NCBI GenBank assembly: GCA_965249645.1
Contig: CBDFML010000010.1
Span: 488,232 to 552,231, forward strand
Direction: 5' to 3'
Source of the DNA: Alphaproteobacteria bacterium
GTDB lineage: Bacteria > Pseudomonadota > Alphaproteobacteria > UBA828 > JAPUJA01
DNA length: 64,000 nt
The position numbers and the translations under genes were made by a program. Positions 2,265 through 63,017 of the stretch are shown here, piece by piece; within the stretch, counting starts at the first letter, position 1, and each line of letters opens with the position of its first letter. The notes beneath the pieces are model-generated. The model worked only from the letters and a program-made list of their open reading frames with translations, was not told the origin of the DNA and did not search any database.

Positions 2265-2915
2265 ATGCCCACAGAGGCAAATTCAAACGGGATGAAATTC
2301 CAGGATCCCCATGGCCTAAAAGAGGGCAGACACGCAACCCTCGAGAAGGCAATCGGGCACGAAGTGCGGCGCCTGCGCAAGCAACTCGATATGACCGTGA
2401 TCGAGCTGGCCAATGTGGCCGGCCTGTCGTCGGGGATGCTGTCGAAAATCGAAAACGGGCTGACCTCGCCGTCGCTTGCGACCCTGCAGGCGTTGGCTGG
2501 CGCACTCAACGTGTCGATGAGCGCCTTCTTTCAGAAATACGAGGATCAGAAGGACGCCACCTTCGTCAAGGCGGGACAGGGACTGCGAATCGAGCGCCGG
2601 GGTACGCGAAACGGCCATCAGTATCATCTTCTGGGCCATTCCATAGGGCGCAAGATTGCCGTCGAACCGTACCTGATCGTGATCGAGGAACAGGCAACGA
2701 CCTTCCCGTCGTTTCAGCATACCGGGCACGAATTCATCCATATAATCGATGGGCGGATGAACTACGTTCATAACGGTGTGGTTTATGAAATGGGAGCGGG
2801 CGACTCTCTGTTCTTCGACGGGGAGGCCCCGCACGGCCCCGAGCGCCTGATCGAGCTTCCGATCCGGTTCATTTCGGTCATTACCTACCCGAGCGACAAT
2901 GAATCCCGAAAATAA
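2265..2915 (+). CDS. XRE-family HTH plus C-terminal cupin transcriptional regulator (PuuR-like architecture)
   Basis: ORF 2208..2915. HTH segment LDMTVIELANVAGLSSGMLSKIENG and cupin segment HTGHEFIHIIDGRMNYV..GDSLFFDGEAPHG. The start is uncertain (2208, 2265 or 2292). Confidence 0.85.
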   Translation: MPTEANSNGMKFQDPHGLKEGRHATLEKAIGHEVRRLRKQLDMTVIELANVAGLSSGMLSKIENGLTSPSLATLQALAGALNVSMSAFFQKYEDQKDATFVKAGQGLRIERRGTRNGHQYHLLGHSIGRKIAVEPYLIVIEEQATTFPSFQHTGHEFIHIIDGRMNYVHNGVVYEMGAGDSLFFDGEAPHGPERLIELPIRFISVITYPSDNESRK

Positions 2916-2989
2916 TAGATTGTTGATTTTATTTCAATAGCTTATGGTATTTTTAGCCTTCGAAGAAGTCAAAGGCACGCGTTCAAAAA

Positions 2990-3035
2990 ATTTCATACCT
3001 AGAAACAAAATTAATTATCTTGCAAATTATGAAAT
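2990..3035. promoter_or_regulatory. 8-bp inverted repeat ATTTCATA..TATGAAAT in the AT-rich leader of the GS-like gene (candidate operator)
   Basis: ATTTCATA at 2990..2997 and TATGAAAT at 3028..3035, inside an unusually AT-rich spacer (about 2916..3060) between the regulator and the GS-like gene. An 8-bp repeat is statistically weak. Confidence 0.2.
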
Positions 3036-3180
3036 GTTGACGTCGTGTTGATTGACGGGCTGACCCATCGAGCCGGACCGCGGGAGGCGACTCAGCTTGA
3101 CAGTTCGACAAAACCGACAATATTGGCGTGACTCCGCGGCAGGGCCGGCTGTCTGACGGCAATATCTCAGGGAGATTCCG

Positions 3181-4488
3181 ATGGCTGTTGATCTGGCGAA
3201 GATCGCCAAGGAAAGAAAGATCAAATATTTTTTGATCAGCTTTACCGACCTGTTCGGTGTGCTGCGCGCCAAGTTGGTGCCGGCGGCAGCGATCGGGGGG
3301 ATGCAAAGGGACGGTGCGGGATTTGCCGCTTTTGCCGCGTGGCTCGACAGCACGCCCGCAGACCCCGACATGCTGGTGATCCCCGATCCCGATAGCCTGA
3401 TCCAGTTGCCCTGGAAGCCCGAGGTCGGGTGGCTCGCCGGCGATTCCCATATGGACGGCAAGCAGATGGCGGACACGCCGAGGGTCATGCTCAAGACCCA
3501 GGTTCAGAAGCTGGCCAAGATGGGCTATTGCATGAAAACAGGAATCGAGGCCGAATACTTCCTGATCAACGACGACGGCAGTGCTATCGCGGATTCGCGC
3601 GACACCCAGGCTAAGCCCTGCTACGACCAGACGGCGTTGATGCGGCGTTACGATGTGATTTCGGAAATCTGTGACTGCATGCTCGAGTTGGGCTGGAAGC
3701 CCTACCAGAACGATCACGAAGACGCGAATGGCCAGTTCGAGATGAACTGGGATTTCAACGACTGTCTCGTCACTGCCGACCAGCACGTATTCTTCAAATT
3801 CATGGTCAAGGAAATTGCCGAAAAGCACGGTTTGCGCGCGACCTTCATGCCCAAGCCGTTCTCCTACCTGACGGGCAACGGCTGCCACGCCCATGTCTCA
3901 TTGTGGGACAAGGCGGGAAGGAAGAATCTGTTCGATGATCCCAAGGGAGAGCTCGGCCTGTCGAAGCTAGCCTATCAGTTCCTCGGCGGCGCGGTTCATT
4001 CAGCCGTGGCGCTCTGCTCGATCTGGAATCCGACGATCAACAGCTACAAGCGGATCAATGCGCCGCGCACCACTTCGGGAGCCACCTGGTCGCCCAACAC
4101 GGTGACCTTCGGCGGCAACAACCGCACCCACATGGTGCGGATTCCCGATCCGGGCCGGTTCGAACTGCGCCTGATGGACGGAGCCGCAAATCCGTATTTG
4201 CTGCAGGCGGGCATCCTGGTTGCCGGTATCGACGGCATCAAGAACAAGCGCGATCCGGGAAAGCGTCTCGACATCAATATGTATACGGACGGCCAAAAGG
4301 TGCGCGGCGCCAAGAAATTGCCGCTCAATCTGCTCGATGCCATTCGCTTGACCGAGAAAAACAAGGTTTTGCGCGACGGCTTCGGCGACTCCTTCATCGA
4401 GAGCTACGTCAAGTTGAAGCATGAGGAGTGGACCCTCTTTACCGCCCACCTGACGCAGTGGGAACGGGACAACACGCTCGACTGCTAG
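3181..4488 (+). CDS. Glutamine synthetase-like ligase, about 435 aa (GlnT / gamma-glutamylmethylamide-synthetase-like class)
   Basis: ORF 3181..4488. N-terminus KIKYFLISFTDLFGVLRAKLVP and C-terminal GS catalytic segments NGCHAHVSLWD, NSYKRI and NRTHMVRIP. Confidence 0.9.
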   Translation: MAVDLAKIAKERKIKYFLISFTDLFGVLRAKLVPAAAIGGMQRDGAGFAAFAAWLDSTPADPDMLVIPDPDSLIQLPWKPEVGWLAGDSHMDGKQMADTPRVMLKTQVQKLAKMGYCMKTGIEAEYFLINDDGSAIADSRDTQAKPCYDQTALMRRYDVISEICDCMLELGWKPYQNDHEDANGQFEMNWDFNDCLVTADQHVFFKFMVKEIAEKHGLRATFMPKPFSYLTGNGCHAHVSLWDKAGRKNLFDDPKGELGLSKLAYQFLGGAVHSAVALCSIWNPTINSYKRINAPRTTSGATWSPNTVTFGGNNRTHMVRIPDPGRFELRLMDGAANPYLLQAGILVAGIDGIKNKRDPGKRLDINMYTDGQKVRGAKKLPLNLLDAIRLTEKNKVLRDGFGDSFIESYVKLKHEEWTLFTAHLTQWERDNTLDC

Positions 4489-4545
4489 GAGCGTCCGTCG
4501 CGATCCGGTTTGCGCCGGCGCTGTCTGTACGGAGTCAGAATCGTC

Positions 4546-5787
4546 ATGCCTTTGCGGCTGCTGAAATACGGCCTGTCAAAGACTCACCCGGCCGAGCGCC
4601 ATTTCGCGCGCACGCTCGAGCTCAAGCCGAATTACGACGTGGTCATTATCGGCGGTGGCGGCCACGGCCTCGCTTGCGCCTACTACCTCGCGAAATTTCA
4701 CGGGATCACCAACGTCGCTGTGCTCGAAAAGGGCTATGTCGGCGGTGGCAACACGGGGCGGAACACTGCCATCGTGCGTTCGAATTACCTGACCCCGGAG
4801 GGTGTGCGGTTCTACGATGAATCGGTGCGGCTTTACAAGAACCTCTCGGCCGAACTCGACTTCAACATTATGTACTCGGAGCGCGGTCATTTCACGCTCG
4901 CCCATACAGATTCGGCAATCCGGACGGCGCGCTGGCGGGCCGAGGTGAACAAGCATATCGGCGTCGATTCCGAGGTCGTCTATTGCGACGATTTGCGCCG
5001 AATGATTCCACTGCTTAACCTGTCGGAAGACGTACGTTATCCCGTCATGGGCGCACTCTACCACCCGCCCGGCGCGATTGCCCGCCACGATGCGGTGGCC
5101 TGGGGCTATGGCGGCAGGGCCAGCCAGCTCGGCGTGGAAATTCACCAAGGGACGGAAGTCACCGGGATCAAGCAAGGGGGCGGCCGGGTGACCGGCGTGA
5201 TCACTAACCGCGGCGAAATCGGCTGCGGCAAGGCAATGCAGGCGGTGGCGGGGATGAGCTCGGTCATGGCCGCCAAGGCCGGGTTCAAGCTGCCGATCAG
5301 CTCGACCACACTTCAGGCCTGCGTCTCGGCGCCGCTCAAGCCGTTCCTCAACGACATCGTCGTCTCAGGCAGCTTGCATGTCTATATCTCGCAAAGCTCG
5401 CGTGGCGAATTGGTGATGGGTGGTTCGGCTGAGGGCTACTCTCGCTACAACACTCGCACAACCCTCGACCTGACCGAGGGCCTGATGGCGCATATGCTCG
5501 AACTATTCCCTTTTTTAGGCGAGGTGCCGCTGCTGCGACACTGGGCCGGGATCGTCGACATGACACCGGACTTCAGCCCGATCATGGGCGAAACACCGGT
5601 CGAGAACTATTACATCGATGCCGGGTGGGGGACTTGGGGCTTCAAGGCGACTCCAGTGAGCGGCAAGCGTATGGCAGAGACCCTCGCAACAGGCCGCGTG
5701 CCCGACATTCTCAAGCCTTTCCGGCTATCGCGGTTCAATGAGTTCGCGTTGGTCGGTGAAAAGGGCGCCGCAGCGGTGGGCCATTGA
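4546..5787 (+). CDS. soxB: Heterotetrameric sarcosine oxidase / N-methylglutamate dehydrogenase family, beta subunit
   Basis: ORF 4510..5787. YDVVIIGGGGHGLACAYYLAKFHGITNVAVLEKGYVGGGNTGRNTAIVRSNY is the SoxB-type FAD fold. The ATG at 4546 is the likely start. Confidence 0.88.
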   Translation: MPLRLLKYGLSKTHPAERHFARTLELKPNYDVVIIGGGGHGLACAYYLAKFHGITNVAVLEKGYVGGGNTGRNTAIVRSNYLTPEGVRFYDESVRLYKNLSAELDFNIMYSERGHFTLAHTDSAIRTARWRAEVNKHIGVDSEVVYCDDLRRMIPLLNLSEDVRYPVMGALYHPPGAIARHDAVAWGYGGRASQLGVEIHQGTEVTGIKQGGGRVTGVITNRGEIGCGKAMQAVAGMSSVMAAKAGFKLPISSTTLQACVSAPLKPFLNDIVVSGSLHVYISQSSRGELVMGGSAEGYSRYNTRTTLDLTEGLMAHMLELFPFLGEVPLLRHWAGIVDMTPDFSPIMGETPVENYYIDAGWGTWGFKATPVSGKRMAETLATGRVPDILKPFRLSRFNEFALVGEKGAAAVGH

Positions 5788-5797
5788 GGATGGCGTC

Positions 5798-6118
5798 ATG
5801 AAAATCCTAACCTGCCCCCTGAACGGTCCCCGCAACATCTCGGAATTCGTCTACGGCGGAGAGGTGGTCGACATGCCGGATCCCAGCCGCTGCTCCGTCG
5901 ACGAGTGGGCTGATTATGTGTTCCTCGAAAACAACACGGCCGGCGTGGTGCGCGAATGGTGGTATCACGCGCCGACCGCCTATTGGTTTATCGCCGAGCG
6001 CGATACGGTGAGCGAGGAGGTCATCCGGACCTACGACGCCGGAACCGTGTTCAAGGAGCGCATCGAATTCAGCAAGCCCGAACAGTCGGCGAACGCCGGC
6101 GCGCCGAAGAAAGACTAG
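5798..6118 (+). CDS. soxD: Sarcosine oxidase family, delta subunit
   Basis: MKILTCPLNGPRNISEFVYGGE within ORF 5738..6118. Small subunit located between the beta and alpha genes, as in soxBDAG operons. Confidence 0.8.
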   Translation: MKILTCPLNGPRNISEFVYGGEVVDMPDPSRCSVDEWADYVFLENNTAGVVREWWYHAPTAYWFIAERDTVSEEVIRTYDAGTVFKERIEFSKPEQSANAGAPKKD

Positions 6119-6124
6119 GCGGCA

Positions 6125-9046
6125 ATGGCGTCTCAATCCCGACGACTCTCCGAGCCCGCAGGGCTGCTGATCGATCGCTCGGTTCCGGTCAGCTTCTCGT
6201 TTGAGGGGGAACGCTACAGCGGCTTTGCCGGCGACACGATTGCCAGCGCTCTGGTTGCGAACGGCGTGACGACGATTTCACGTTCGTTCAAATACCACCG
6301 GCCGCGTGGTGTGCTCTCGATGTGCGGGCATGATGCCAACAGCCTGGTCCAAATCGGCCCCCGGCCCAATGCGCTGGCCGACAAGGTATTGATTGCGGAC
6401 GGATTGGTGGTGCGCGGCCAAAACTATTCCGGCAGTCTGGAGAACGACCGGACCGCGCTGCTGGGCCTGCTCGGGCGGTTCATGCCGGTCGGTTTCTATT
6501 ACAAGGCGTTCCATACGCCGAAGGCCCTGTGGCCGTTCTGGGAAAAGGTGATCCGGCGGATTGCGGGCCTCGGCAAAGTCGATCTCGGTCATCACCACGA
6601 ATATTACGACAAGGAATACTTGTTTGCCGATATCTGCGTCGTGGGCGGTGGCCCGGCTGGGATGGCCGCGGCGCTGAAAGCCGCTGAATCAGGTGCTGAG
6701 GTCATTCTCGTTGACGATATGGATGCCCTGGGCGGCTCGCTCAATTACGCCCGGTTCGACGCCAAGGGCGAGGCGGGGGCCAAGGTCCGGGCCAAGCTCG
6801 TCACCGAGGTTGAGGCCCAGCCGAACATCCGAGTCATGACCCGGACCATGTGTAATGGCTGGTTTTTCGACAACTGGCTTCCCCTGGTCGGCGATCGCCG
6901 GCTCTACAAACTTCGGGCAAAGGCTCTCGTCGCCGCGACGGGCACCATCGACCAGCATGTGGCGTTCCATAACAATGACCTGCCGGGTGTGATGATGGCG
7001 AGCGCCGTGCAACGGCTGATCCGGCTCTACGGCGTGCGGCCGGGAACACGCGCGGTCGTGACGACGGCGAACGGTGATGGTTACGGCGCGGCGCTCGATC
7101 TGGTCGATGCCGGCGTCGACGTCGCTTGCGTCGTCGACATGCGGGCCGAACCCGTACCGGACGAGCGCTACGAGGCGGTGCTCCAGAAGGCGCATATTCC
7201 GATCTTTGCGAATTCGGCCATTCGTGAAGCGATCCCCTTGTCCGGAAACAAGGGCGTTCGAGCGGTCGACGTGGCGCGCATCGTGGGCGACGGCCAGTTG
7301 GCCACACAAAGCGACCGGTTCGAGTGCGATCTGGTGGCGATGGCGGGCGGCTACAATCCGTTTGCAGCACTCGTCTATCAAGCAGGCGGCCAACTGTCCT
7401 ACGACGAGGATGTTGCCATGTTCGGGATCGCCGGGCTGCCGGAACACCTTTTTGCCGCAGGCTCCGTGGACGGAGCGTTCCGTCTCGATGCTGTGAACGA
7501 GAGCGGTCGAATCGCCGGCTGGGCGGCGGCAAAAGATGCGGGCTTCGGAGCTGGACGGAAGCCAGCGAGTCGCGCGGAAAAAGGCACGGCCGAGCAGAAT
7601 ATCGCCTGGCCGATGTTCCCTCATCCGAAGGCCAAGGAATTCATCGACTTCGATGAGGACCTCCAGATCAAGGACATCGTGAACACCATCGCCGAGGGCT
7701 ACGATCATATCGAGCTGCAAAAACGCTTCTCGACTGTGGGCATGGGACCGTCCCAAGGGCGCCATTCCCTGTTGCCGTCGGTGCGGATCAACGCGCGAGC
7801 AAACGGGCGAAGTGTTGACGAGACGGGTGTGACGACCCAGCGTTCGCCGATCTCGCAGATTACGATCAGCCATCTTGCCGGGCGGATTTTCGATCCCGTA
7901 CGCGAGACCTCGATGCATCACCGGCATCTCGAGCTAGGCGCCCGGATGATGACGGCGGGCACCTGGATGCGACCCGAATATTACGGCACGCCGGACAACC
8001 GAGCGGACAGCATCCTGCGTGAAGTGAAGAGCGTGCGCGAGAACGTTGGCGTGATCGACGTCTCCACCCTTGGCTCGCTGGTAATCCAAGGGCCGGACGC
8101 TGCCGAGTTTCTCGAACGGGTCTATACCTTCGCCTATAAGAAGCAGCCGCTGGGCCGGGCGCGCTATGTATTGATGACCGACCAAAGCGGCGTGATCACG
8201 GATGACGGCGTCGCGTGCCGGCTTCACGACGATCATTTTTACGTCACTGCGACGACTTCGGGTGCGGATGCGGTCTATCGCACCATGCTGTGGTTCAACG
8301 CCCAGTGGCGCCTCAAGGTCAACGTGATCAACGCGACCGCATCCTATGCCGCGGTAAACATCGCCGGCCCCAATGCGCGCAAGGTGTTGGAGAAAATCAA
8401 TACTAAAATCGACTTTTCGAGCGAAGCGTTCCCCTATATGGGCGTGCGCGAGGGCCTGCTCGGAGACATCCCGGCGACGATCATGCGAATCGGCTTTGTC
8501 GGCGAACTCGGCTACGAAATCCACGTTCCCTCTGCGCAGGGCGAAGCCTTGTGGGACGCGCTGTTCGCGGCGGGCGCGGAGTTCGGGATCATGCCGTTCG
8601 GGATCGAGGCCCAGCGCCTGTTGCGGCTCGAGAAGGGCCACATCATCATCAGCCAGGACACGGATGGTCTGACGACGCCTCACGAGGCAGACATGGCCTG
8701 GGCGCTTTCTCGCAAGAAGCAATTTTTTGTCGGCGAGCGCTCAATTGAAATCCAGGCGGTACGTGGCCTAGAGCGCAAGCTTGTCGGATTTGAACTGGTC
8801 GATTCGCAGGCGACGGTACCGCTGGAGGCGCATCTGACGTTGCGTGGCAGCGAGATCGCCGGACGGTTGACCTCGGTGGGTCGCTCTCCGACGCTGGGCA
8901 AGGTTATCGGGCTGGGCTACGTGGCACCCGATCAGACCGAGCCAGGCACGGAGTTCGACATCAAGGTTGCCTACGGCGAGATCGTCAAGGGACGGGTAGT
9001 CAAATTGCCGTTCTACGATCCCGAGGGCGAGCGCCAGGAGATGTGA
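6125..9046 (+). CDS. soxA: Sarcosine oxidase family, alpha subunit (NAD/FAD domain plus GcvT-like folate-binding domain)
   Basis: 973 aa. FKYHRPRG, CVVGGGPAGMAAALKAAESGAEVILVDD, and a C-terminal aminomethyltransferase-like part (GYEIHVP, RLEKGH). Confidence 0.9.
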   Translation: MASQSRRLSEPAGLLIDRSVPVSFSFEGERYSGFAGDTIASALVANGVTTISRSFKYHRPRGVLSMCGHDANSLVQIGPRPNALADKVLIADGLVVRGQNYSGSLENDRTALLGLLGRFMPVGFYYKAFHTPKALWPFWEKVIRRIAGLGKVDLGHHHEYYDKEYLFADICVVGGGPAGMAAALKAAESGAEVILVDDMDALGGSLNYARFDAKGEAGAKVRAKLVTEVEAQPNIRVMTRTMCNGWFFDNWLPLVGDRRLYKLRAKALVAATGTIDQHVAFHNNDLPGVMMASAVQRLIRLYGVRPGTRAVVTTANGDGYGAALDLVDAGVDVACVVDMRAEPVPDERYEAVLQKAHIPIFANSAIREAIPLSGNKGVRAVDVARIVGDGQLATQSDRFECDLVAMAGGYNPFAALVYQAGGQLSYDEDVAMFGIAGLPEHLFAAGSVDGAFRLDAVNESGRIAGWAAAKDAGFGAGRKPASRAEKGTAEQNIAWPMFPHPKAKEFIDFDEDLQIKDIVNTIAEGYDHIELQKRFSTVGMGPSQGRHSLLPSVRINARANGRSVDETGVTTQRSPISQITISHLAGRIFDPVRETSMHHRHLELGARMMTAGTWMRPEYYGTPDNRADSILREVKSVRENVGVIDVSTLGSLVIQGPDAAEFLERVYTFAYKKQPLGRARYVLMTDQSGVITDDGVACRLHDDHFYVTATTSGADAVYRTMLWFNAQWRLKVNVINATASYAAVNIAGPNARKVLEKINTKIDFSSEAFPYMGVREGLLGDIPATIMRIGFVGELGYEIHVPSAQGEALWDALFAAGAEFGIMPFGIEAQRLLRLEKGHIIISQDTDGLTTPHEADMAWALSRKKQFFVGERSIEIQAVRGLERKLVGFELVDSQATVPLEAHLTLRGSEIAGRLTSVGRSPTLGKVIGLGYVAPDQTEPGTEFDIKVAYGEIVKGRVVKLPFYDPEGERQEM

Positions 9047-9047
9047 G

Positions 9048-9764
9048 ATGAGCGTCACCCCGACGGACAGCAGCACCCGGAGCTTCATCTATCGCGAGCT
9101 CATCGCACTCGACGCCACGTTCGAGGATATCGGCGGTTGTGCGGCGGCCTTGACCTGCGGTGGGACGGTTGCGGCGGAGACCGAACAGGCCGCTTCGCTC
9201 GGCCTGTGTGATCTCAGCGCGTTACCACGTTCCGGCTACAAGGGCTGGAACAGCGTGCCCTGGGTGGTGAAGGGCGGCGCCAAGGTCGGGGATGCCCCGA
9301 ACCGCGCCTACCCCCAAAAGGACGGAACGTTGTTTGGGCGCCTGGCTGTCGGCGAGGTGCTAATTCTGGGTCCGCTCAACGGCAAGCCGGGGCTGATCCA
9401 GTCGCTCGCCAAGGGATGGTCGATGAGCGGTGGCGAAGGCGCCTATCCGGTGCCTCGTCAGCACACCAACTGCTGGTACGGGGTGAGCGGCGAGCATGCG
9501 GCAGGTATGTTCGCCAAGATCTGCGGTGTCGATTTGCGGCCCAAAACGTTCGAGAACCATGGCATCGCGCAAACCTCGATTGCCAAGTTGATCGGCATTA
9601 TCGTGCGCGACGATCTGGGGGCTGTGCCCAACTATCATCTGCTGAGCGACAGTGCTTCAGCGGCTTATCTTTGGACCTGCTTGCTGGATGCGGCCGAGGA
9701 ATTCGGTGGTCGGCCGGTAGGACTTTCCGCACTCCGCTATCTCGCAGGCGGCAAGAAACGCTAG
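9048..9764 (+). CDS. soxG: Sarcosine oxidase family, gamma subunit
   Basis: 238-aa ORF starting 1 nt after the soxA-like stop, in the last position of the soxBDAG-type order. Sequence conservation is weak, as is usual for gamma subunits. Confidence 0.7.
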   Translation: MSVTPTDSSTRSFIYRELIALDATFEDIGGCAAALTCGGTVAAETEQAASLGLCDLSALPRSGYKGWNSVPWVVKGGAKVGDAPNRAYPQKDGTLFGRLAVGEVLILGPLNGKPGLIQSLAKGWSMSGGEGAYPVPRQHTNCWYGVSGEHAAGMFAKICGVDLRPKTFENHGIAQTSIAKLIGIIVRDDLGAVPNYHLLSDSASAAYLWTCLLDAAEEFGGRPVGLSALRYLAGGKKR

Positions 9765-10254: not shown

Positions 10255-10260
10255 TGCAAG
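10255..10260. repeat. Target-site duplication TGCAAG (left copy) of the IS21-family element
   Basis: TGCAAG lies immediately outside both proposed IS termini (10255..10260 and 12830..12835). Confidence 0.65.
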
Positions 10261-10288
10261 TGAGAACGGCGGCGCAATAATCCCCCAC
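10261..10288. repeat. IS21-family left terminal inverted repeat (outer); inner copy at 10313..10335
   Basis: TGAGAACGGCGGCGCAATAATCCCCCAC compared with the reverse complement of the right end, TGTCAATGGCGGAGCAAAAAGGGACCAC. Confidence 0.6.
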
Positions 10289-10377
10289 TGAAGCGGCCGG
10301 TTGATCCGGCTGTGGCGGACCAAAATGGGACCGTCTATAGCCTTCTGTCAGGGTTGCTCTGACTGGAAGGCGGGGGG

Positions 10378-11877
10378 ATGTATCGGGTGGAGTTGTACGC
10401 GCGGGTCCGGCGGGCGTGTCGTGTCGAGGGGATGAGCACCCGCGAGGCCTCGCGGGTGTTCGGGCTGGACCGCAAGACGGTGCGCAAGATGCTGTCGTTC
10501 TCGGTGCCGCCGGGATATCGCCGGAGCGTGCCGCGGAGGCGTCCGAAGCTGGACGCATTCACGGGGATTATCGATCGGATCCTGGAGGACGATCGGACCA
10601 GCCACCACAAGCAACGGCACACGGCGAAGCGGATCTTCGACCGTCTCCGGGACGAGTACGGGTTCACCGGCGGCTACACCATCGTGAAGGACTATGTCCG
10701 TGAGCGGCGGCTTCGGTCGCGCGAGATGTTCGTGCCGCTCGTCCATTCCCCCGGCCACGCCGAGGCGGACTTCGGCGAGGCGATGGCGGTGATCGGCGGT
10801 GTGGCGCGCAAGGTCCACTTCCTTGCCTTCGACCTTCCCCACAGTGATGGTTGCTTCGTGAAGGCCTATCCGGCGGAGACGACCGAGGCGTTCTGCGATG
10901 GCCACAACGCGGCGGTTGCGTTCTTCGGCGGCGTCCCCCGCTCCATCCTGTACGACAACACCAAGCTGGCGGTTGCCCGCATCCTGGGCGATGGAAAGCG
11001 GCAGCGAACGCGCGTCTTCACGGAGCTGCAATCCCACTATCTGTTCGAGGACAGGTTCGGCCGGCCGGGCAAGGGCAACGACAAAGGCAAGGTCGAGGGA
11101 CTGGTCGGCTTCATCCGGCGGAACTTCCTGGTCCCCGTCCCGCGGGCCGAGAGCATCGAGGCGCTGAACGATGATCTCGCGGGACAGTGCCGCCGGCGCC
11201 AGGCGGCGCGGCTGCGGGGTCACAAGGAGACCATCGGCGAGCGCCTCGCGCGGGATCGCCAAGCTCTGCTACCGCTACCCCCGGCACCATACGATGCCTG
11301 CGACAAGCGTCCCGGGCGGGTGAGTTCGCTGTCGCTGTTGCGCTACCGCGGCAACGACTACTCCGTACCCGTGGCCTACGGCCACCGCGAGGTACTGATC
11401 CGGGGCTATGTCGACGAGGTGATGATCAGCTGCGGGGCCGAGGTGATCGCCCGGCACCGCCGGTCCTATGACAGCGAGGACCTGATCTTCGACCCGCTGC
11501 ATTATCTGCCATTGATCGAGCAGAAGATCGGCGCCCTCGACCAGGCCGCGCCGTTGGCGGGCTGGGACCTGCCCGAGGCCTTCATCACTCTGCGACGCCT
11601 GCTCGAAGCCCGCATGGGCAAGGCGGGCAAGCGCGAGTACGTCCAGGTGTTGCGTCTGCTGGAGACCTTCCGGCCCGAGGAGGTCGAGGGTGCGGTCGGC
11701 GACGCCCTGCGGCTTGGCACGATCGGCTTCGATGCCGTCAAGCACCTGGTGCTGTGTCGGACCGAGCGACGGCCGCCTCGACTGGATCTCGACGTCTATC
11801 CGTACCTGCCGCGCGCCCGGGTCGCGATAACGTCTGCCAAATCGTACATGAGCCTGCTGTCGGGGCTCCGCGCATGA
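10378..11877 (+). CDS. istA: IS21-family transposase IstA
   Basis: 499 aa. N-terminal HTH (STREASRVFGLDRKTVRKM), DDE core (HAEADFGE..LYDNTKLAV) and the typical IstA C-terminus. Confidence 0.93.
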   Translation: MYRVELYARVRRACRVEGMSTREASRVFGLDRKTVRKMLSFSVPPGYRRSVPRRRPKLDAFTGIIDRILEDDRTSHHKQRHTAKRIFDRLRDEYGFTGGYTIVKDYVRERRLRSREMFVPLVHSPGHAEADFGEAMAVIGGVARKVHFLAFDLPHSDGCFVKAYPAETTEAFCDGHNAAVAFFGGVPRSILYDNTKLAVARILGDGKRQRTRVFTELQSHYLFEDRFGRPGKGNDKGKVEGLVGFIRRNFLVPVPRAESIEALNDDLAGQCRRRQAARLRGHKETIGERLARDRQALLPLPPAPYDACDKRPGRVSSLSLLRYRGNDYSVPVAYGHREVLIRGYVDEVMISCGAEVIARHRRSYDSEDLIFDPLHYLPLIEQKIGALDQAAPLAGWDLPEAFITLRRLLEARMGKAGKREYVQVLRLLETFRPEEVEGAVGDALRLGTIGFDAVKHLVLCRTERRPPRLDLDVYPYLPRARVAITSAKSYMSLLSGLRA

Positions 11878-12638
11878 CCGACACGCCGCAGGTGCTGCTC
11901 GTCCACCACCTCAAGAGGCTGAAGCTGCCGACGTTCCTGAGGGAGTACGACAAGATCGCCCGGCAGTGTGCCTCGGAAGGCGTCGACCACGTTCGCTATC
12001 TTCTGCGTCTTGCCGAGCTCGAGCTGATCGCCCGCGAGCGCCGCATGGTCGAGCGGCGCATCAAGGCGGCGCGCTTCCCCGTGATCAAGAGCCTCGACAG
12101 CTTCGACTTCAAGGTCATCCCCTCGCTCAACAAGACGCTGGTCCTGGAGCTGGCCCGCTGCGCGTACATCGAGCGCCGCGAGAACCTCATCGCGCTCGGC
12201 AACAGCGGCACCGGCAAGACCCACATCGCCCTCGGTCTCGGCCTGGCGGCCTGCCAGAAGGGCCTCTCGGTCGGCTTCATCACCGCCGCCGCACTGGTCC
12301 ACGAGCTCATCGAGGCCCGCGATGACAAGCAGCTGCTGAGGTTCCAGAAGAAGCTCGCCACCTACAAGCTTCTGATCGTCGACGAACTCGGCTTCGTGCC
12401 GCTGTCCAAGACCGGCGCCGAGCTCCTGTTCGAGGTGTTCAGCCAGCGCTACGAGCGGGGCTCGACCCTGGTCACCACCAATCTGCCCTTCGACGAATGG
12501 ACCGAGGTGTTCGGCTCCGAGCGCCTCACCGGCGCTCTCCTCGACCGCCTCACCCACCACGTCAACATCCTCGAGATGAATGGCGAGAGCTACAGGCTCA
12601 ACCAGAGCCGCAGGCGTCAAACCCCGACGGCGAACTGA
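11874..12638 (+). CDS. istB: IS21-family helper ATPase IstB
   Basis: MTDTPQVLL.. from the ATG at 11874, overlapping the istA stop. Walker A GNSGTGKTH and Walker B LLIVDELG. Confidence 0.93.
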   Translation: MTDTPQVLLVHHLKRLKLPTFLREYDKIARQCASEGVDHVRYLLRLAELELIARERRMVERRIKAARFPVIKSLDSFDFKVIPSLNKTLVLELARCAYIERRENLIALGNSGTGKTHIALGLGLAACQKGLSVGFITAAALVHELIEARDDKQLLRFQKKLATYKLLIVDELGFVPLSKTGAELLFEVFSQRYERGSTLVTTNLPFDEWTEVFGSERLTGALLDRLTHHVNILEMNGESYRLNQSRRRQTPTAN

Positions 12639-12801
12639 ACCGACCACCCAGCCCACGCTTGACCCCGTGGGCCCACAGGTCCCTCCCGCGCGCGCCGCCG
12701 CGTCGGCCTGTTGAGGGCACGCCGCGTCGCACGCGGGGCCCTCCCATGGACTACGGGGACAAGCCCGCAGCCGCCAAGTGGTCCCTTCTTACACCGCCAC
12801 G

Positions 12802-12829
12802 GTGGTCCCTTTTTGCTCCGCCATTGACA
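12802..12829. repeat. IS21-family right terminal inverted repeat (outer); inner copy at about 12778..12800
   Basis: See the left repeat. Two tandem copies of GTGGTCCCTT(C/T)TT..CCGCCA. Confidence 0.6.
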
Positions 12830-12835
12830 TGCAAG
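12830..12835. repeat. Target-site duplication TGCAAG (right copy)
   Basis: Identical hexamer abutting the right IS terminus. Confidence 0.65.
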
Positions 12836-56273: not shown

Positions 56274-57068
56274 ATGACGACTCTAGCGCCCGACCCCGTT
56301 GAGCGGGACCAGCCCATTCGGTTTCTCAATGCGGAAGGGCAGGGACCCGGCCTGATCATCTGCGACCATGCTTCCAACCGAATCCCCGAAAGCCACAGCA
56401 GCCTCGGGCTCGACGAAGAGTCTCTTCGGGATCATATCGCGTGGGATATCCGGGCCGCAGAACTCTCGGAAGCGTTGTCCACTCGTCTTGACATGCCGGC
56501 CATTCTCTCCGGCTATTCCCGTCTCTTCATCGACTGCAATCGCACGCCCGATCACCCGGAACTTGTACGGGCGGAAAGCGACGGGCGCCGGATTCCCGGC
56601 AATCAGGAGCTCACGGCGCAAGAAATCGACTCGCGCCGTAAGCACGCCTACGAGCCCTACCACGCGGCGATCGAGCGCTGGCTGGACGAACGGCTGGCAT
56701 CGGGCTCGATCCCGGTGGTGTTGTCGGTCCACAGCATGACCCGCCACCTCGAGGGGCAGCCGGTTCGGCCGTGGCAGGTTTGTATTCTGTGGAATCAAGA
56801 CGGCCGGCTCGCTCAACCCTTGCTCGCAGCTTTGCAGGTGCAGGCCCGTTTTGTGATCGGCGACAATGAGCCCTATTCAGCGAAAGTTTTGGCGGGCGCA
56901 ACGCGATCGTGGCATGCCGAATTACGTGGTCTCCCCCACGTCATATTCGAGATCCGCAACGACTTACTTGCCACCACTGCCGGAATCGACGCCGTCGCCG
57001 ACGTCCTTCACGCTGTGCTTGAGCCGGTGCTTGCCAGTCCCGAACTCTACACCATCCAGCATTTCTAG
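56274..57068 (+). CDS. N-formylglutamate amidohydrolase-family (FGase, PF05013-like) hydrolase
   Basis: LIICDHASNRIPE, HIAWDI, YSRLFIDCNR, SVHSMT, GDNEPYS and FEIRNDL. Confidence 0.8.
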   Translation: MTTLAPDPVERDQPIRFLNAEGQGPGLIICDHASNRIPESHSSLGLDEESLRDHIAWDIRAAELSEALSTRLDMPAILSGYSRLFIDCNRTPDHPELVRAESDGRRIPGNQELTAQEIDSRRKHAYEPYHAAIERWLDERLASGSIPVVLSVHSMTRHLEGQPVRPWQVCILWNQDGRLAQPLLAALQVQARFVIGDNEPYSAKVLAGATRSWHAELRGLPHVIFEIRNDLLATTAGIDAVADVLHAVLEPVLASPELYTIQHF

Positions 57069-57154
57069 ACGGTTGTATCCGGATCCCGGTCTGCCGGGGT
57101 GGGCATGCTGGTATCTCTGGTCTACCGTGTGATCCCGGCGGAAGGGAGATCCGA

Positions 57155-58531
57155 ATGAAACCCGAACAGGTACGCACCGCGGATGATGCGCGGGCAATCA
57201 TCGAGGAGCACAATCCCGATATGGTGACAATCGGGATGGTCGATATGCAGGGCCTCCTCCGCGGCAAGTACATCTCGAGGGAAAAGATTCTGAGCGCGCT
57301 TGATGGCGGTTACGGAATGCCGCTCTTGATCCACGCGCTCGACCCTCACGACGTCATGCTCGACAGCTCGATTGCAGACGGTTCCGACGGGTATGCCGAC
57401 TACGATGCGCGCATTTTGCCCGAGACCTGCCGCGAACTGCCTTGGGAGCCCGGCCACAGAAACCTTTTCTTTCTCTCGGAGTTCGCAGGGCAAGCCGAAT
57501 CGGTTTGCCCGCGAGCAATTTACCGGCGGGTTTGCGAACGAGCTGCGAGCATGGGATTCGTGCCGGATCACGGCCTCGAATATGAGTTCACTCTGTTCGA
57601 CGAAACCTCCCGATCCGCGGCGGAAAAGAACTATCGCGGTCTGCAGCTCGCGACCGAGTTCAAGACTTACGACGTGCTTCTTCGCCAGGCCGTGTGGTCG
57701 GAGTTCTATTCCCAGTTGCTCGATTGGTGCCGCACGGCGCGGATCGTTATCGAGGCAGCCCATGAAGAGATGTCCCCTGGCTTCATGGAATGTTCGATCC
57801 GCCACGGCACAGGTGTCGACATTGCCGATCAGGGGGCCTTGTTCAAGCTGATGGCCAAGACCGTTGCGCAGCGCCGCGGGTTGCTTCTGACCTTCATGGC
57901 GCGGTGGAGCAATCAGGCCGACGGCCAGAGTGGCCACGTGCATATCTCGTTAAGCGGGACGAACGGCGAAACCGTTTTCCACGATGCGGCGGGTGACCGG
58001 GGAATGAGCCAGAACATGCGTAATTTTCTGGGCGGCATGCAGGCTCTGATGCCTGAGTTGTTGCTCATGCTGGGCCCCAATATCAACTCGTTCAAACGGT
58101 TCGTTCCCGGCATCTTTGCACCGACCGTTGCGGGCTGGGGCTGGGAGAATAGATCTTGTGCCTTGAGGGTAATCCCGGGTTCGCCGAAATCCCAACGGAT
58201 CGAATGCCGAACCCCGGGGGCGGATACGAATCCGTATCTCTCTCTCGCCTGTCTTCTCGGCGCCGGTCTGCACGGCGTCGAGCAGAAAATCGAGCCGACT
58301 GAACCGGTCGAGGGCGTAATTTACGGTCGTGAGCACGAGTTACCCGATCGTCTTCAATTCCCGAAAACCTTCAGCCAAGGTATCGAACGATTTGCGTCAT
58401 CGACGGTGGCCCGCGATTTGTTTGGCGATGAATTTGTCGATGTCTATGCCCAGACCCGGGCATCGCAGGAACGGGATTTTCGCGGCCAGGTCACGGATTC
58501 CGAACTCGTGCGCTTTTTCGAGCTCATATGA
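57155..58531 (+). CDS. Glutamine synthetase-like ligase (PuuA/GlnA3-type gamma-glutamyl-amine synthetase-like)
   Basis: 458 aa. LEYEFTLFD, HEEMSPGFMECS, GQSGHVHISL, NSFKRF, ENRSCALRV and ECRTPGADTNPY. Confidence 0.85.
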   Translation: MKPEQVRTADDARAIIEEHNPDMVTIGMVDMQGLLRGKYISREKILSALDGGYGMPLLIHALDPHDVMLDSSIADGSDGYADYDARILPETCRELPWEPGHRNLFFLSEFAGQAESVCPRAIYRRVCERAASMGFVPDHGLEYEFTLFDETSRSAAEKNYRGLQLATEFKTYDVLLRQAVWSEFYSQLLDWCRTARIVIEAAHEEMSPGFMECSIRHGTGVDIADQGALFKLMAKTVAQRRGLLLTFMARWSNQADGQSGHVHISLSGTNGETVFHDAAGDRGMSQNMRNFLGGMQALMPELLLMLGPNINSFKRFVPGIFAPTVAGWGWENRSCALRVIPGSPKSQRIECRTPGADTNPYLSLACLLGAGLHGVEQKIEPTEPVEGVIYGREHELPDRLQFPKTFSQGIERFASSTVARDLFGDEFVDVYAQTRASQERDFRGQVTDSELVRFFELI

Positions 58532-58602
58532 ACAATTGCGTTTGACACAGTTCAAGATAACGGCGCGCCAGTCAGCGCGGCCTATGTTTCCGCGACGGTC
58601 GA

Positions 58603-59451
58603 CTATTCGTCGAGGCTTTCGGCACTTTCTTCGCGCATCATGTGGAGAACATGGTGATGCAGCTCGTTGTAGCCCGGGCTGTCATACATCTCCTCCTTGC
58701 TGCGTAGGCGCCGGCCCTTCTTGAAATCAGGGATGATGTTCTCGCGGACCCGTCCCGGGTGGCGGGACATGAAGATAATACGATCGGCAAGGAAGATAGC
58801 TTCCTCGATATCATGGGTGACCATGATGACGGTTTTCTTCGAACTTTCGAGAATCTCGAGCATCAGCTCCTGCATATGCCAGCGGGTTTCCGCATCGAGC
58901 GCACCGAAGGGTTCGTCCATGAGCAGGATTTCCGGATCGTTTGCAAGGGTCCGGGCGATGGCCACGCGTTGTTTCATGCCGCCGGACAGCTGTTTCGGAT
59001 AGGCATCCCTGAACTTCGTCAGGTGCACGAGATCGATATAATGTGCAGCCCGTTCGGCGCGGGTCGACTTCGGAACTCCGTTCAACCGCATTCCATACTC
59101 GATGTTCTGTTGGACGGTCAGCCAGGGAAACGAGGTGTAGCCCTGAAACACCATTCCTCGGTCGCGTCCTGCTGCGAGAATTTCCTCTCCTTCGAGAAAC
59201 ACGGCGCCACCCGTTGGGTCTTCAAGGCCCGCAATGATTCGCAGCAATGTGGATTTACCGCACCCCGATGGTCCGAGCAGGGCGCAAAGCTCATTCGACA
59301 TCACATCGAACGTGATGTCTTCGATTGCACGGATCGTAGCGCCCTTTTTTAAGTCGAAATCCTTCGTCAATGCCTGTGACGACAGAATTATCTCGTCGCG
59401 CGTCTGCGTATTACTCGGAGCCGTCTCGTTCATGGCGTCGCCCTCGCTCAC
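58603..59451 (-). CDS. ABC ATP-binding protein, NitT/TauT (nitrate/sulfonate/taurine) family
   Basis: GPSGCGKST, LSGGMKQRVAIAR, LLMDEPFGALD. Start either GTG 59451 or ATG 59433. Confidence 0.88.
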   Translation of the reverse strand: MSEGDAMNETAPSNTQTRDEIILSSQALTKDFDLKKGATIRAIEDITFDVMSNELCALLGPSGCGKSTLLRIIAGLEDPTGGAVFLEGEEILAAGRDRGMVFQGYTSFPWLTVQQNIEYGMRLNGVPKSTRAERAAHYIDLVHLTKFRDAYPKQLSGGMKQRVAIARTLANDPEILLMDEPFGALDAETRWHMQELMLEILESSKKTVIMVTHDIEEAIFLADRIIFMSRHPGRVRENIIPDFKKGRRLRSKEEMYDSPGYNELHHHVLHMMREESAESLDE

Positions 59452-59460
59452 TTCGTCGCT

Positions 59461-60888
59461 CTAAAAGAACCGCATATATTCTTCCTGTTCCCATTCAGAG
59501 ACGGTGGTGTAGTAGCGATCCCACTCGTCCTGCTTGTAGGTCAGCCAACAATCCAGCAGCGTCTCGCCCATCACCTGTTTTGACATGGGATCGGCCCGGA
59601 TCGCATGAATCGCGTCCTGAAGCGTTGCCGGAGTACGCTCAACACCCGCCTTCCTGAGTTCCTCCTTGTCCGCCTCATAAAGACTTATATTGGTCGGCTT
59701 AGGAGCTTTCATCTTCTTGGTGATGCCCTCCAATGACGCGGCGATGTGCATGGCGAACGCCATATAGACGTTCATCGTCAGGTCAGCTGCCCGGTTCTCG
59801 ATGGCGAACCTCGTCTGGGGCAATCGGTACATGGCCGAACGGTTGTTGGTGCCGTAGGTGATATGGGTCGGCGCCCAGGTCACCGTGCCGCCCTCGAATC
59901 CGGGCACGTAATCGACCAGGCCCTTGTACGAATTCACGGTCGGACAGCTGACCCCGCAGATCGCCTTGCCGTGCTTGATCAATCCCCCCAGCATGTTGAA
60001 GGTCACGTCGCTCCAGCCGCCGTCTTTGGCCTGCAGGAGGTTCTTTCCGGCGCCCTTCGTGCTCTGCACGCTGGTGTTGATGTGCGAAGCACTCCGCCAG
60101 TCGCCTGTCGTGGGCTTCGGCATGAAGGTCGCGATCAGGCCGTGTTCCTTGGCAAGCTCCTTGAGCAGGATGCGCAGGAAGATGAACCGATCCGCCGTCG
60201 TCAGCATGTCAGAATAATCGAAATCGAGCTCGATCTGGGAATAGGCGCCCTCGGCGACGACGTCTTTCACGCCCCAGCCGAGGCTGTTCAGGATATCGAT
60301 CACTTCGCTCACATACGGCATCTGGTCGAGGGTGAACTCGACGTCGTAGCCGTAGGGCTGCCGCTTGGGTCGAAATCCCTCGCCCGGCAAGGGATCGTCG
60401 TCAAACGCCTTCCACAGTTGGCCGTTTTCGAGCGGCCGCATGATGATGAACTCCGGCTCAAAGCCCGTGAAGAACTTGTAGCCGGCGTCCTTTGCTTTCT
60501 TGATCTGGCGGCGCAGCACTGTGCGCGGGCACATGCGGTAGGGCTTAGTGTCCCCGTGATAAAGATCGGCAATGACCCAGCCGTAGCGGTTGTCCCACGG
60601 ACAGACTTCGGCCGAATCGAGATCCGGCACCGTGATCTGGTCCGGATCGGCCGGACCCGCGTCGGGCACCATGGACACCGAATGCACCGCGAATTGGGGG
60701 CCCTTGCCGGCGCATAGACCTTCCCATTCCTCGATCGGCACAGGCTTCGTTTTCGGAATGCCGAGCATATCGATCCAGCAGCACAGCACGTATTTAACAC
60801 CCGACTTCTCGAACTTCTTGCGGACATCCGCCACGCGCTTGGCGGACGGCAGCGCTTCCTGGATGCTTTCGGGAAAATCTTTGCTCAT
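59461..60888 (-). CDS. Glutamine synthetase-like ligase (475 aa), located between the ABC permease and ATPase genes
   Basis: FEPEFIIM, AEGAYSQIELDF, SASHINTSV, NSYKGL and NRSAMYRLP. RBS GGAGA. Confidence 0.85.
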   Translation of the reverse strand: MSKDFPESIQEALPSAKRVADVRKKFEKSGVKYVLCCWIDMLGIPKTKPVPIEEWEGLCAGKGPQFAVHSVSMVPDAGPADPDQITVPDLDSAEVCPWDNRYGWVIADLYHGDTKPYRMCPRTVLRRQIKKAKDAGYKFFTGFEPEFIIMRPLENGQLWKAFDDDPLPGEGFRPKRQPYGYDVEFTLDQMPYVSEVIDILNSLGWGVKDVVAEGAYSQIELDFDYSDMLTTADRFIFLRILLKELAKEHGLIATFMPKPTTGDWRSASHINTSVQSTKGAGKNLLQAKDGGWSDVTFNMLGGLIKHGKAICGVSCPTVNSYKGLVDYVPGFEGGTVTWAPTHITYGTNNRSAMYRLPQTRFAIENRAADLTMNVYMAFAMHIAASLEGITKKMKAPKPTNISLYEADKEELRKAGVERTPATLQDAIHAIRADPMSKQVMGETLLDCWLTYKQDEWDRYYTTVSEWEQEEYMRFF

Positions 60889-60968
60889 CGTCTTTGGTCT
60901 CCGTTAATGCGGTACGGCCCGGTAGGGGCGGTGCGATTGATAGCAAGGGTCTTCAAATTTGGCCGCTT

Positions 60969-61826
60969 CTAGCTTTCTCTCTCGTCGAGGTATTTGAACA
61001 GTACCCGGTGCAGGTAGCGGAACATAAAGTCGAACATCAGTCCCAGGATGCCGATCATCAGGATGCCGGCCATGATCTTGTCGACATGGATGAAGCGTTT
61101 GGCCTGGATCATCATGGCGCCGATGCCGTCGGTCGCGGCGACGATTTCGGCGATCACGAGATAGGTCCAGCTGATCGCCAGCATCTGGCGCATCGCGGTG
61201 ACAACGTTGGGCATGACGCCTGGTACGACGACGGTCCACAGCACCTGCCAACGGTTGCCGCCAAGCGTGACCGAGGTTTCGATCAGTTCGTTTCGTACCG
61301 CCTTGGTGTGGTCCATGATCAGTGTCAGCATGAACCAGATGGCGCCGAGCACGAGAAGCGCGAGCTTTGATTCATCGCCCGAGCCCAGCCACATCAGCAG
61401 CAGTGGGATCAACGACGGGGCCGGCAGATAACGCCAGGCGGACACTAGCGGATTGAAGAATTTTTCGACTGTCTGAAACGACCCCATGAGGATGCCGAGC
61501 GGCACCGCGATCAGGCAAACGAGGCCGAAGCTGACGACGATCCGATAAATACTGACCAGGACGTCGATGATGAACTCGTCGTAGGCGTACAGCTCGTAGA
61601 GTTTGACGATGACGGTCTGGGGCGTCGGCAGTAGCAATTCCGACGACCAGCCGGCCAGGTTCACAAGCTCCCACAGGGCAAAAAAGATTATCCAGACGGT
61701 GACCCCGAGCACGACGGCCCGGGTCATCGGAATGGGTTTCTTGAATTCGAACAGCCGTTGCCGGCGCTTTGTCTGCGTGCCGGAGGCCGTTCGGGCCGAA
61801 TCATCGCCTGTTTGGGGTACGCTCAT
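60969..61826 (-). CDS. ABC permease, NitT/TauT family
   Basis: ETSVTLGGNRWQVLWTVVVPGVMP EAA loop; about six TM segments. Confidence 0.85.
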   Translation of the reverse strand: MSVPQTGDDSARTASGTQTKRRQRLFEFKKPIPMTRAVVLGVTVWIIFFALWELVNLAGWSSELLLPTPQTVIVKLYELYAYDEFIIDVLVSIYRIVVSFGLVCLIAVPLGILMGSFQTVEKFFNPLVSAWRYLPAPSLIPLLLMWLGSGDESKLALLVLGAIWFMLTLIMDHTKAVRNELIETSVTLGGNRWQVLWTVVVPGVMPNVVTAMRQMLAISWTYLVIAEIVAATDGIGAMMIQAKRFIHVDKIMAGILMIGILGLMFDFMFRYLHRVLFKYLDERES

Positions 61827-62229
61827 CGCAGCCTGTTTTTACCAACTGTTGCGCGGAAATGCCTGGGCGTTTGCCGGCTTATCGGTTCAACGTCCGCCAG
61901 AAAATCAAACCGCCAAGTTGGCGTGCGTGCCACTTTTCACGCGTAGACCGTGCAACGGTGTTGTAACTCCCCAATCGCCTTCCGGGTGCGCGGATCGCGC
62001 GCCGGCAGTGATTTTTTTCTTTGCCGCGACCGAGGGCGGAGCGGCAGCGCTACGTTATAGGACGCTGTCTTGAGCCGCAATCCGAAAAACTAGTTATCGG
62101 AAAGCGCTTTGTGCCTCATGCGCTTGCCCGTTGACGATGGAGAATCTTGCGTTTCGGGGCGGTTGGGCTAGGCTGCCGCCGCACGGTCGTTGGTGAACGA
62201 TCGAGAGCATTTCGGGGAGCGATTGCATC

Positions 62230-62991: not shown

Positions 62992-63017
62992 CGGCTCGCA
63001 CCAGGGAATCAGAAGCC

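Follow-up and report, generated by a model that had tools for sequence, protein, structure and literature searches.

Can a gene cluster that encodes a gamma-glutamylating ligase and a sarcosine oxidase-like enzyme carry out a shortened route of alkylamine catabolism, or does it form part of the N-methylglutamate (NMG) pathway with its middle enzyme encoded elsewhere? This question is raised by a 64,000-nucleotide stretch (the window; C10:488232-552231) of a 4.1-Mb, 12-contig alphaproteobacterial assembly. Open reading frame (ORF) listing and family scans at window positions 2265-9764 identified six co-oriented plus strand genes: a regulator with XRE-type helix-turn-helix (HTH) and cupin domains, a glutamine synthetase (GS)-like ligase and a four-gene set of the heterotetrameric sarcosine oxidase (SoxBDAG) family. 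An earlier sequence-only reading had described this operon and the lack of GltB-like genes around it, and both observations stood, as a Pfam domain scan detected no Glu_synthase (PF01645) or GXGXG (PF01493) domain within the window coordinates.

On the evidence of gene identity and orthology, of residue conservation and of distribution among genomes, our analysis favours, at a probability of roughly 0.7, a split NMG pathway in which the window would supply the first and last steps and a variant synthase trio on contig C12 the middle enzyme. The ligase (GmaS) would join methylamine to the gamma-carboxyl group of glutamate at the expense of ATP to form gamma-glutamylmethylamide (GMA), the C12 trio would convert GMA to N-methylglutamate, so that the middle step would not be skipped, and the Sox-like enzyme (MgdABCD) would oxidise N-methylglutamate back to glutamate, with the GcvT-like domain of its alpha subunit handing the methyl carbon to tetrahydrofolate. 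The window genes are ordinary members of the known pathway and the non-ordinary element lies outside the window.

The window ligase is a GmaS orthologue

The sequence-only reading had placed the ligase in the GlnT/gamma-glutamylmethylamide synthetase size class, and family models, structural relatives and phylogeny together identify it as a GmaS orthologue, whose substrate here would be methylamine. The protein scored above the cut-off of TIGR03105 ('type III glutamate--ammonia ligase'; Table 1) and below those of the GlnA (276 bits, cut-off 429) and PuuA (251 bits, cut-off 650) models. Its best solved relative was PDB 7CQL (642.6 bits; 433 aligned residues, among which the window ligase has two one-residue insertions after position 246). 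This structure represents the Rhodovulum sp. 12E13 gamma-glutamylmethylamide synthetase (RhGmaS), a characterised methylamine ligase (PMC7948447). Catalysis in RhGmaS involves Asp177, Glu186 and Arg312, its methylamine pocket is formed by Tyr147, Gln175, Glu179, Asn188 and Lys30', and the ammonium machinery of GS is lost, with Ala48' substituting for the loop residue Asp50' and Trp300 for the Glu-flap Glu (PMC7948447). The corresponding residues in the window ligase are D178, E187 and R315 for catalysis, Y148, Q176, E180, N189 and K31 for the pocket, and A49 and W303 at the two altered GS positions. All of the ATP, glutamate, pocket and catalytic residues named for RhGmaS were thus kept with the sole change of the ATP ligand Tyr191 to Phe. 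In the GmaS tree the ligase fell within the clade of gmaS genes that adjoin synthase (mgs) genes, and among approximately 15 GS-family genes in the genome it alone was closely related to RhGmaS, against which the next-best TIGR03105-positive paralogue (C11:8639) scored 301 bits. This second ligase also lies on contig C4 (10.3 kb), an 84-91% identical copy of C11:8625-19526; it scored 552 bits against TIGR03105, is about 40% identical to GmaS and had as its best PDB match 9QUR, a 'glutamate--methylamine ligase' (350 bits).

Public annotation would lead to a different reading, namely a plain ammonia-assimilating GlnT (GSIII) beside a sarcosine oxidase, with adjacency that carries no pathway meaning, since the ligase family is named glnT or 'type III glutamate--ammonia ligase' and the accompanying proteins 'sarcosine oxidase subunit'. 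However, RhGmaS was itself deposited under the same ligase name, and the two residues that mark its loss of ammonium binding are kept in the window. Additionally, a Methylobacterium plasmid 'glnT' that is 68.5% identical to the ligase sits in an amidotransferase-glxC-FMN-glutamate-synthase-glnT operon, that is, mgsABC-gmaS. Together with the low GlnA score and the Sox-like scores described below, these findings make the annotation-based reading scarcely credible.

The Sox-like genes are of the N-methylglutamate dehydrogenase type

All four Sox-like subunits missed the cut-offs of the heterotetrameric sarcosine oxidase families (TIGR01372-01375; Table 1), in contrast to the SoxB, SoxD and SoxA proteins of a second operon, a true soxBDAG located 35 kb upstream in the same genome (C10:454426-459621), which scored above them. 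For comparison, 80 related gmaS loci were fetched with the window ligase as query, and in 19 of these orthologues of the window Sox-like genes closely preceded regulator-mgsA-mgsB-mgsC-gmaS, the arrangement of a classical NMG cluster. The window proteins were 57-79% identical to those of the 19 relatives in comparison to 37-48% identity with the organism's own soxBDAG products; by subunit the values were 63-79% versus 47-48% for MgdA (against SoxB) and 56-64% versus 37-39% for MgdC (against SoxA), and MgdD was 44-52% identical to the fourth gene product of NMG-cluster sox-like operons. Divergence and poor conservation of the MgdD gamma subunit have been reported previously (PMC5023235). MgdC comprises Fer2_4, flavin adenine dinucleotide (FAD), SO_alpha_A3, GCV_T and GCV_T_C domains and its nearest structures were the heterotetrameric sarcosine oxidases 1VRQ and 2GAG (about 450 bits). 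A CPLNGPRN N-terminus, with Asn at the position of the second Cys in canonical SoxD, was common to all 20 aligned Mgd-type orthologues of MgdB and is a family trait. The window genes are accordingly of the Mgd (N-methylglutamate dehydrogenase) type, and N-methylglutamate is their predicted substrate in this organism. A homologue search with MgdA for curated 'N-methylglutamate dehydrogenase' names returned generic names only. The mgdA start was set at 4546 from the orthologue alignment, the ORF list having placed it at 4510.

Two further observations concern these genes. MgdB carries a WWCH to WWYH change that otherwise occurred only in L088, and a divergent 415-aa GS-like protein precedes the canonical soxBDAG (C10:453053-459621, equal to L101:10053-16621), with another GS-like gene at L101:3940-5439.

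The gmaS-mgdABCD layout is native to the lineage. Metagenome contigs from relatives with 96% MgdA identity (L111, L112) had the identical order O-methyltransferase, regulator, gmaS, mgdABCD, and the four mgd genes also directly followed gmaS in L041 and L050. The cluster is therefore not a chance juxtaposition.

A proposed variant synthase on contig C12

Searches of the whole genome with canonical MgsA, MgsB and MgsC from related loci did not find canonical mgsABC, the best matches being 36%, 38% and 52% identical, respectively. The genome had three Glu_synthase-domain genes above the Pfam cut-off, which were the housekeeping gltB on C11, a gene in a module on C10 designated cluster 1, and the C12 variant. 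A tree of the flavin mononucleotide (FMN)-binding domain resolved canonical, cluster 1 and variant clades with branch support (SH-aLRT) of 99-100, and the organism's own genes fell in the last two. The ordinary split pathway that the sequence-only reading had allowed for was borne out as regards GmaS and Mgd orthology and the presence of a synthase-like set elsewhere in the genome. This set is not the canonical mgsABC that the reading had proposed to search for and belongs to a distinct clade.

Variant Mgs (mgsA, fused mgsB-mgsC and a GltD-like gene) is defined in this analysis and has no curated family. The C12 trio showed the N-terminal Cys of the amidotransferase, the GXGXG-Glu_synthase fusion, the GltD-like partner and the synteny or co-occurrence with gmaS by which we recognise it. 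Cysteines spaced C-x5-C-x4-C were kept in 11 of 11 variant sequences, a spacing which we take to be the 3Fe-4S motif of GltB. At the same columns, canonical MgsC sequences (loci L017-L095) had Asp-Trp/Tyr-Asp in 30 of 47 cases, three Fe-S cysteines in 16 and a mixed form in one, and a 16-17-residue insert was present there in every canonical and cluster 1 sequence displayed; canonical MgsC forms may thus differ in holding a 3Fe-4S cluster. Invariant cysteines occur in the Fer4_20 region of the GltD-like protein as well as in its C-terminal half, where residues ~574-804 were modelled as an alpha/beta barrel with per-residue confidence (pLDDT) >85. The best structural matches of this barrel were FMN-dependent TIM-barrel enzymes, including glutamate synthase 1OFD.

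Judged by its domains and motifs, the trio together has all the predicted parts of an NAD(P)H-dependent glutamate synthase. By analogy with glutamate synthase (GOGAT), it would convert GMA, 2-oxoglutarate and NAD(P)H to glutamate and N-methylglutamate, and we infer that the GltD-like subunit fits such a reductive reaction with 2-oxoglutarate. We consider the chances evenly balanced that the trio and its relatives constitute an undescribed, widespread NMG synthase that replaces mgsABC, takes in electrons through a GltD-like NAD(P)H/Fe-S subunit of its own and follows GOGAT-like chemistry. A literature search of incomplete coverage found no GltD-linked or fused Mgs, which leaves novelty unproven, and a protein-atlas look-up of the GltD-like protein returned small, generically named clusters only. 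Directly downstream of the trio, C12:900938-902329 encodes an FAD oxidoreductase that resembles the TIGR03329 family ('putative aminophosphonate oxidoreductase'; 532 bits, cut-off 633), which was not kept beside the trio in related loci.

Distribution of canonical and variant mgs genes

Canonical mgsABC lay immediately upstream of gmaS in 52 of the 80 related loci. In a further 15, orthologues of the C12 trio (49-77% identity) took its place directly upstream of gmaS or of regulator-gmaS, often with the same regulator between the variant trio and gmaS, and approximately nine loci had no mgs adjacent to gmaS. Whole-genome searches detected the fused variant gene (68-96% identity) in five of five genomes without gmaS-adjacent mgs, including the nearest relative, L041 and L050, and in none of five genomes with the canonical layout, where the best match did not exceed 43%. 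Apart from gltB, two genomes (G001, G004) had the variant as their sole Glu_synthase-domain gene that passed the cut-off. Synthase layouts were interspersed within one tight clade of the GmaS tree, and therefore the same ligase appears to work with either synthase type, with the swap having happened more than once according to the tree.

Searches for gmaS and the variant were extended to 200 evenly sampled genomes of the class, of which 30 and 10, respectively, were positive. A gmaS orthologue was present in nine of the ten variant carriers (the tenth being 79% complete) in comparison to 21 of the 190 other genomes, counts that are phylogenetically non-independent. The variant was located 2.7 kb from gmaS in four of the sampled genomes and apart from it in five, including a complete genome of the same order with a distance of 730 kb, and an mgsC-like match abutted gmaS in 18 of 21 gmaS-positive, variant-negative genomes. 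Overall, about 30% (9/30) of the gmaS-bearing genomes in this sample carried the variant, and nearly all came from different families.

These distributions bear directly on the shorter route that the sequence-only reading had put forward, in which the Sox-like enzyme would oxidise GMA or another gamma-glutamyl-N-alkylamide directly and no synthase would be needed. The adjacency of gmaS and the sox-like genes, which are separated by 57 bp and probably co-transcribed, and the lack of mgs in the window speak for such a route. Nevertheless, the same sox-like orthologues accompany mgsABC in canonical clusters, no sequence feature separates the window Mgd from them, and this genome as well as all five tested genomes without gmaS-adjacent mgs carry the variant elsewhere. 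A split NMG pathway, which had been named beforehand as the outcome that would overturn the shorter route, is the reading favoured here, and direct oxidation is accordingly highly improbable.

It is also conceivable that Mgd mainly handles N-methylglutamate derived from other compounds such as homarine, with GmaS only detoxifying or storing methylamine and no synthase linking the two. A role of Mgd in homarine catabolism has been described in a report cited by PMC13390433, and no full-length orthologue of trimethylamine N-oxide demethylase (Tdm) was found in the whole genome, so the upstream trimethylamine pathway is incomplete. Against this, gmaS and mgd probably form a single operon with a common regulator, and the variant synthase co-occurs with gmaS, which makes a homarine-centred role very unlikely.

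Regulator and leader

Orthologues of the XRE-cupin regulator (53-93% identity) stood beside mgsA or gmaS in 51 of the 80 related loci, and it is a conserved member of NMG clusters. The resemblance to PuuR noted from the sequence held for domain architecture but not for orthology, the score against the PuuR model being 57.6 bits with an equivalog cut-off of 211. A literature search of incomplete coverage found no paper on an XRE-cupin regulator of the NMG pathway.

The inverted repeat ATTTCATACCTAGAAAC in the leader fits the motif RTTTC-N7-GAAAY. Related loci totalling 1.28 Mb had 16 sites of this motif; ten lay no more than 116 bp upstream of mgsA of either canonical or variant type, and several of these ten stood right after the regulator gene. 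In the split-layout relative L109 the motif stood upstream of the distal variant mgsA. The organism's own genome had 14 sites, one being that in the window leader. The repeat is thus a candidate operator, apparently kept where mgsA stands in relatives. The best promoter-like site in the leader was TTGACA-16-AATATT with 10 of 12 matches, and it was kept in the nearest relative (L016). The XRE-cupin protein probably controls the gmaS-mgdABCD transcript from this leader, with RTTTC-N7-GAAAY as its candidate operator. Other motif searches were set aside: a k-mer search downstream of regulator orthologues returned only the mgsA coding start ATGTGCGG, and a less strict regular expression, written for the repeat in its TTTCTTGC-N-ATGAAAC form, gave too much noise.

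Table 1. Features of the window (positions within the window) and of related loci on contigs C10 and C12, with names assigned by homology.
Feature	Position	Strand	Evidence or content
XRE-HTH and cupin regulator	2265-2915 (start may be 2292)	+	HTH_3 and Cupin_2
AT-rich leader	2916-3180	+	inverted repeat ATTTCATACCTAGAAAC at 2990-3006; sigma-70-like promoter 3097-3124
gmaS, gamma-glutamylmethylamide synthetase	3181-4488	+	Gln-synt_C; TIGR03105 658 bits (cut-off 470); 7CQL match; residues
mgdA, SoxB-like FAD subunit	4546-5787	+	TIGR01373 504 bits (cut-off 529)
mgdB, SoxD-like delta subunit	5798-6118	+	PF04267; TIGR01374 69 bits (cut-off 116.5)
mgdC, SoxA-like alpha subunit with folate-binding GcvT domain	6125-9046	+	TIGR01372 894 bits (cut-off 1164)
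mgdD, SoxG-like gamma subunit, divergent	9048-9764	+	weak GCV_T match; no NCBIfam match
IS21 element (istA 10378-11877, istB 11754-12638)	~10255-12835	+	NF033546, NF038214; in spacer after mgdD; outside pathway
Variant trio	C12:902364-907757	-	mgsA, fused mgsB-mgsC and GltD-like gene
Variant mgsA, N-terminal nucleophile (Ntn) amidotransferase starting Met-Cys-Gly, ~303 aa	from C12:907757	-	N-terminal nucleophile Cys
Fused mgsB-mgsC, 652 aa	C12:904900-906858	-	GXGXG and FMN Glu_synthase domains
GltD-like protein, 844 aa	C12:902364-904898	-	first 430 residues Fer4_20 and FAD/NAD(P)H domains
Cluster 1 (L099)	C10:362764-367458		divergent 489-aa GS-like ligase; mgsA-, mgsB- and mgsC-like genes

Cluster 1 and the weight of the split-pathway reading

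Several findings weigh against the assignment of the middle step to the C12 trio. Cluster 1 could in principle supply synthase activity and is a serious alternative source of it: its MgsC is 51% identical to canonical MgsC in comparison to 40% for the variant, its three separate genes resemble the mgsABC layout, and several variant-bearing genomes also possess a cluster 1-like gene. The whole-genome motif scan gave no RTTTC-N7-GAAAY site upstream of the organism's own C12 genes, and only chance-level 8-10-mers were shared between the window leader and the C12 mgsA leader, for which reasons co-regulation of the two loci is not claimed. The fold model of the C-terminal domain of the GltD-like protein was built from nine sequences and had a mean pLDDT of 64, with a core >85 and disordered flanks, and hence only a fold class is claimed. 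Finally, contamination of the assembly is estimated at 7% and some small contigs in it are redundant; as a counterweight, C12 is the largest contig and the genome of the closest relative has a 96% identical copy of the variant.

If cluster 1 rather than the variant served the window GmaS and Mgd, the C12 trio would do something else. The divergent ligase of cluster 1 suggests a different amine, however, and the module forms its own well-supported clade. Cluster 1 adjoined gmaS in none of the 80 loci in comparison to 15 for the variant; four genomes (G001, G004, G172, G206) have the variant and lack a cluster 1-like gene, and L028 and L037 have both cluster 1 and canonical gmaS-adjacent mgs, so that no replacement has taken place there. 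Synthesis of N-methylglutamate by cluster 1 is therefore unlikely, and the C12 trio remains the preferred middle enzyme. Cluster 1 itself, with orthologues in L028, L037 and several sampled genomes, is by its gene content a paralogous gamma-glutamyl-amine/synthase module; a DAO-family oxidase adjoins it (C10:362764-368917), and its GS-like ligase had no PDB match at the 1e-60 limit. The genome also encodes more than ten proteins of 800-900 aa with a GcvT domain (dimethylglycine/sarcosine-dehydrogenase-like), which together with its approximately 15 GS-family genes points to the use of a wide range of amines, methylated ones among them.

Comparison with known systems

The NMG clusters of Methylobacterium extorquens DM4, Methyloversatilis universalis FAM5 and Ruegeria pomeroyi DSS-3 share with the present system the three-step logic, the four-gene sox-like dehydrogenase and the divergent gamma subunit. 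In contrast to these clusters, mgsABC is absent here from both cluster and genome, mgdABCD directly follows gmaS, and the candidate synthase lies on another contig, belongs to a different clade, has fused B and C parts and includes an additional GltD-like subunit. TmaR, the regulator known from R. pomeroyi, belongs to the AraC type, unlike the XRE-cupin protein of the window. E. coli PuuR shares the HTH_3 and cupin domains and the position beside gamma-glutamylation pathway genes, although the window regulator is not its orthologue.

NADPH-dependent GltBD (GOGAT) offers the closest parallel for the trio, which likewise has an amidotransferase, a GXGXG domain, an FMN domain with GltB-spaced cysteines and a GltD-like Fe-S/FAD/NAD(P)H module. 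It differs from GltBD in that these domains are distributed over three proteins, GXGXG precedes the FMN domain, the Pfam central domain is missing and the GltD-like protein has an extra C-terminal TIM-barrel-like domain. Furthermore, housekeeping gltBD is encoded separately on C11, and the trio neighbourhood is tied to gmaS and not to glnA. The GmaS/NMG synthase (NMGS) pair has been proposed to mirror the GS/GOGAT cascade, with the redox cofactor (reductant) of NMGS stated to be unknown (PMC6237917). The SoxBDAG enzymes of known structure (1VRQ, 2GAG) share with Mgd the four-subunit architecture and domains, but Mgd falls below the NCBIfam sox cut-offs and its delta subunit lacks the second N-terminal Cys.

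Insertion sequence and assembly redundancy

An insertion sequence (IS) of the IS21 type interrupts the spacer after mgdD. At the same spot L111 and L112 have no IS and a 783-bp spacer followed by an S24 repressor gene, the window spacer measuring 775 bp when the IS is left out, and these IS-free relatives rule out the element as the cause by which mgs genes were cut off from the operon. The 2.57-kb IS21 (window 10261-12829 in the copy search) was present in at least 30 copies, 98-99.9% identical, on contigs C1, C3, C5 and C7-C12, indicating a strong recent expansion in this genome.

The end of C10 (C10:545252-558293, window 57021-64000) is duplicated at 99.76% identity on the small contig C3 (C3:2-13041), which also matches C12:600399-615481 at 99.5%. 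Redundancy in the assembly or a second strain is the probable source of this duplication, in line with the contamination level. Two GS-like genes lie in the duplicated stretch, at window 57416-58513 (plus strand) and 59473-60819 (minus strand).

Implications for methylamine use

Methylamine is a common marine source of nitrogen and carbon, and gmaS serves as a field marker of the organisms that consume it. Genome surveys in which the presence of mgsABC decides the score would class the pathway of this organism as incomplete, and likewise that of the variant carriers, about 30% of the gmaS-bearing genomes of the class sample. The variant also bears on the question of the redox partner of NMGS (PMC6237917), since its operon includes a gene for an NAD(P)H-type subunit. 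If our reading is correct, the long-unknown reductant of NMGS would be named for the variant form, and methylamine nitrogen would be assimilated straight into glutamate with no free ammonium.

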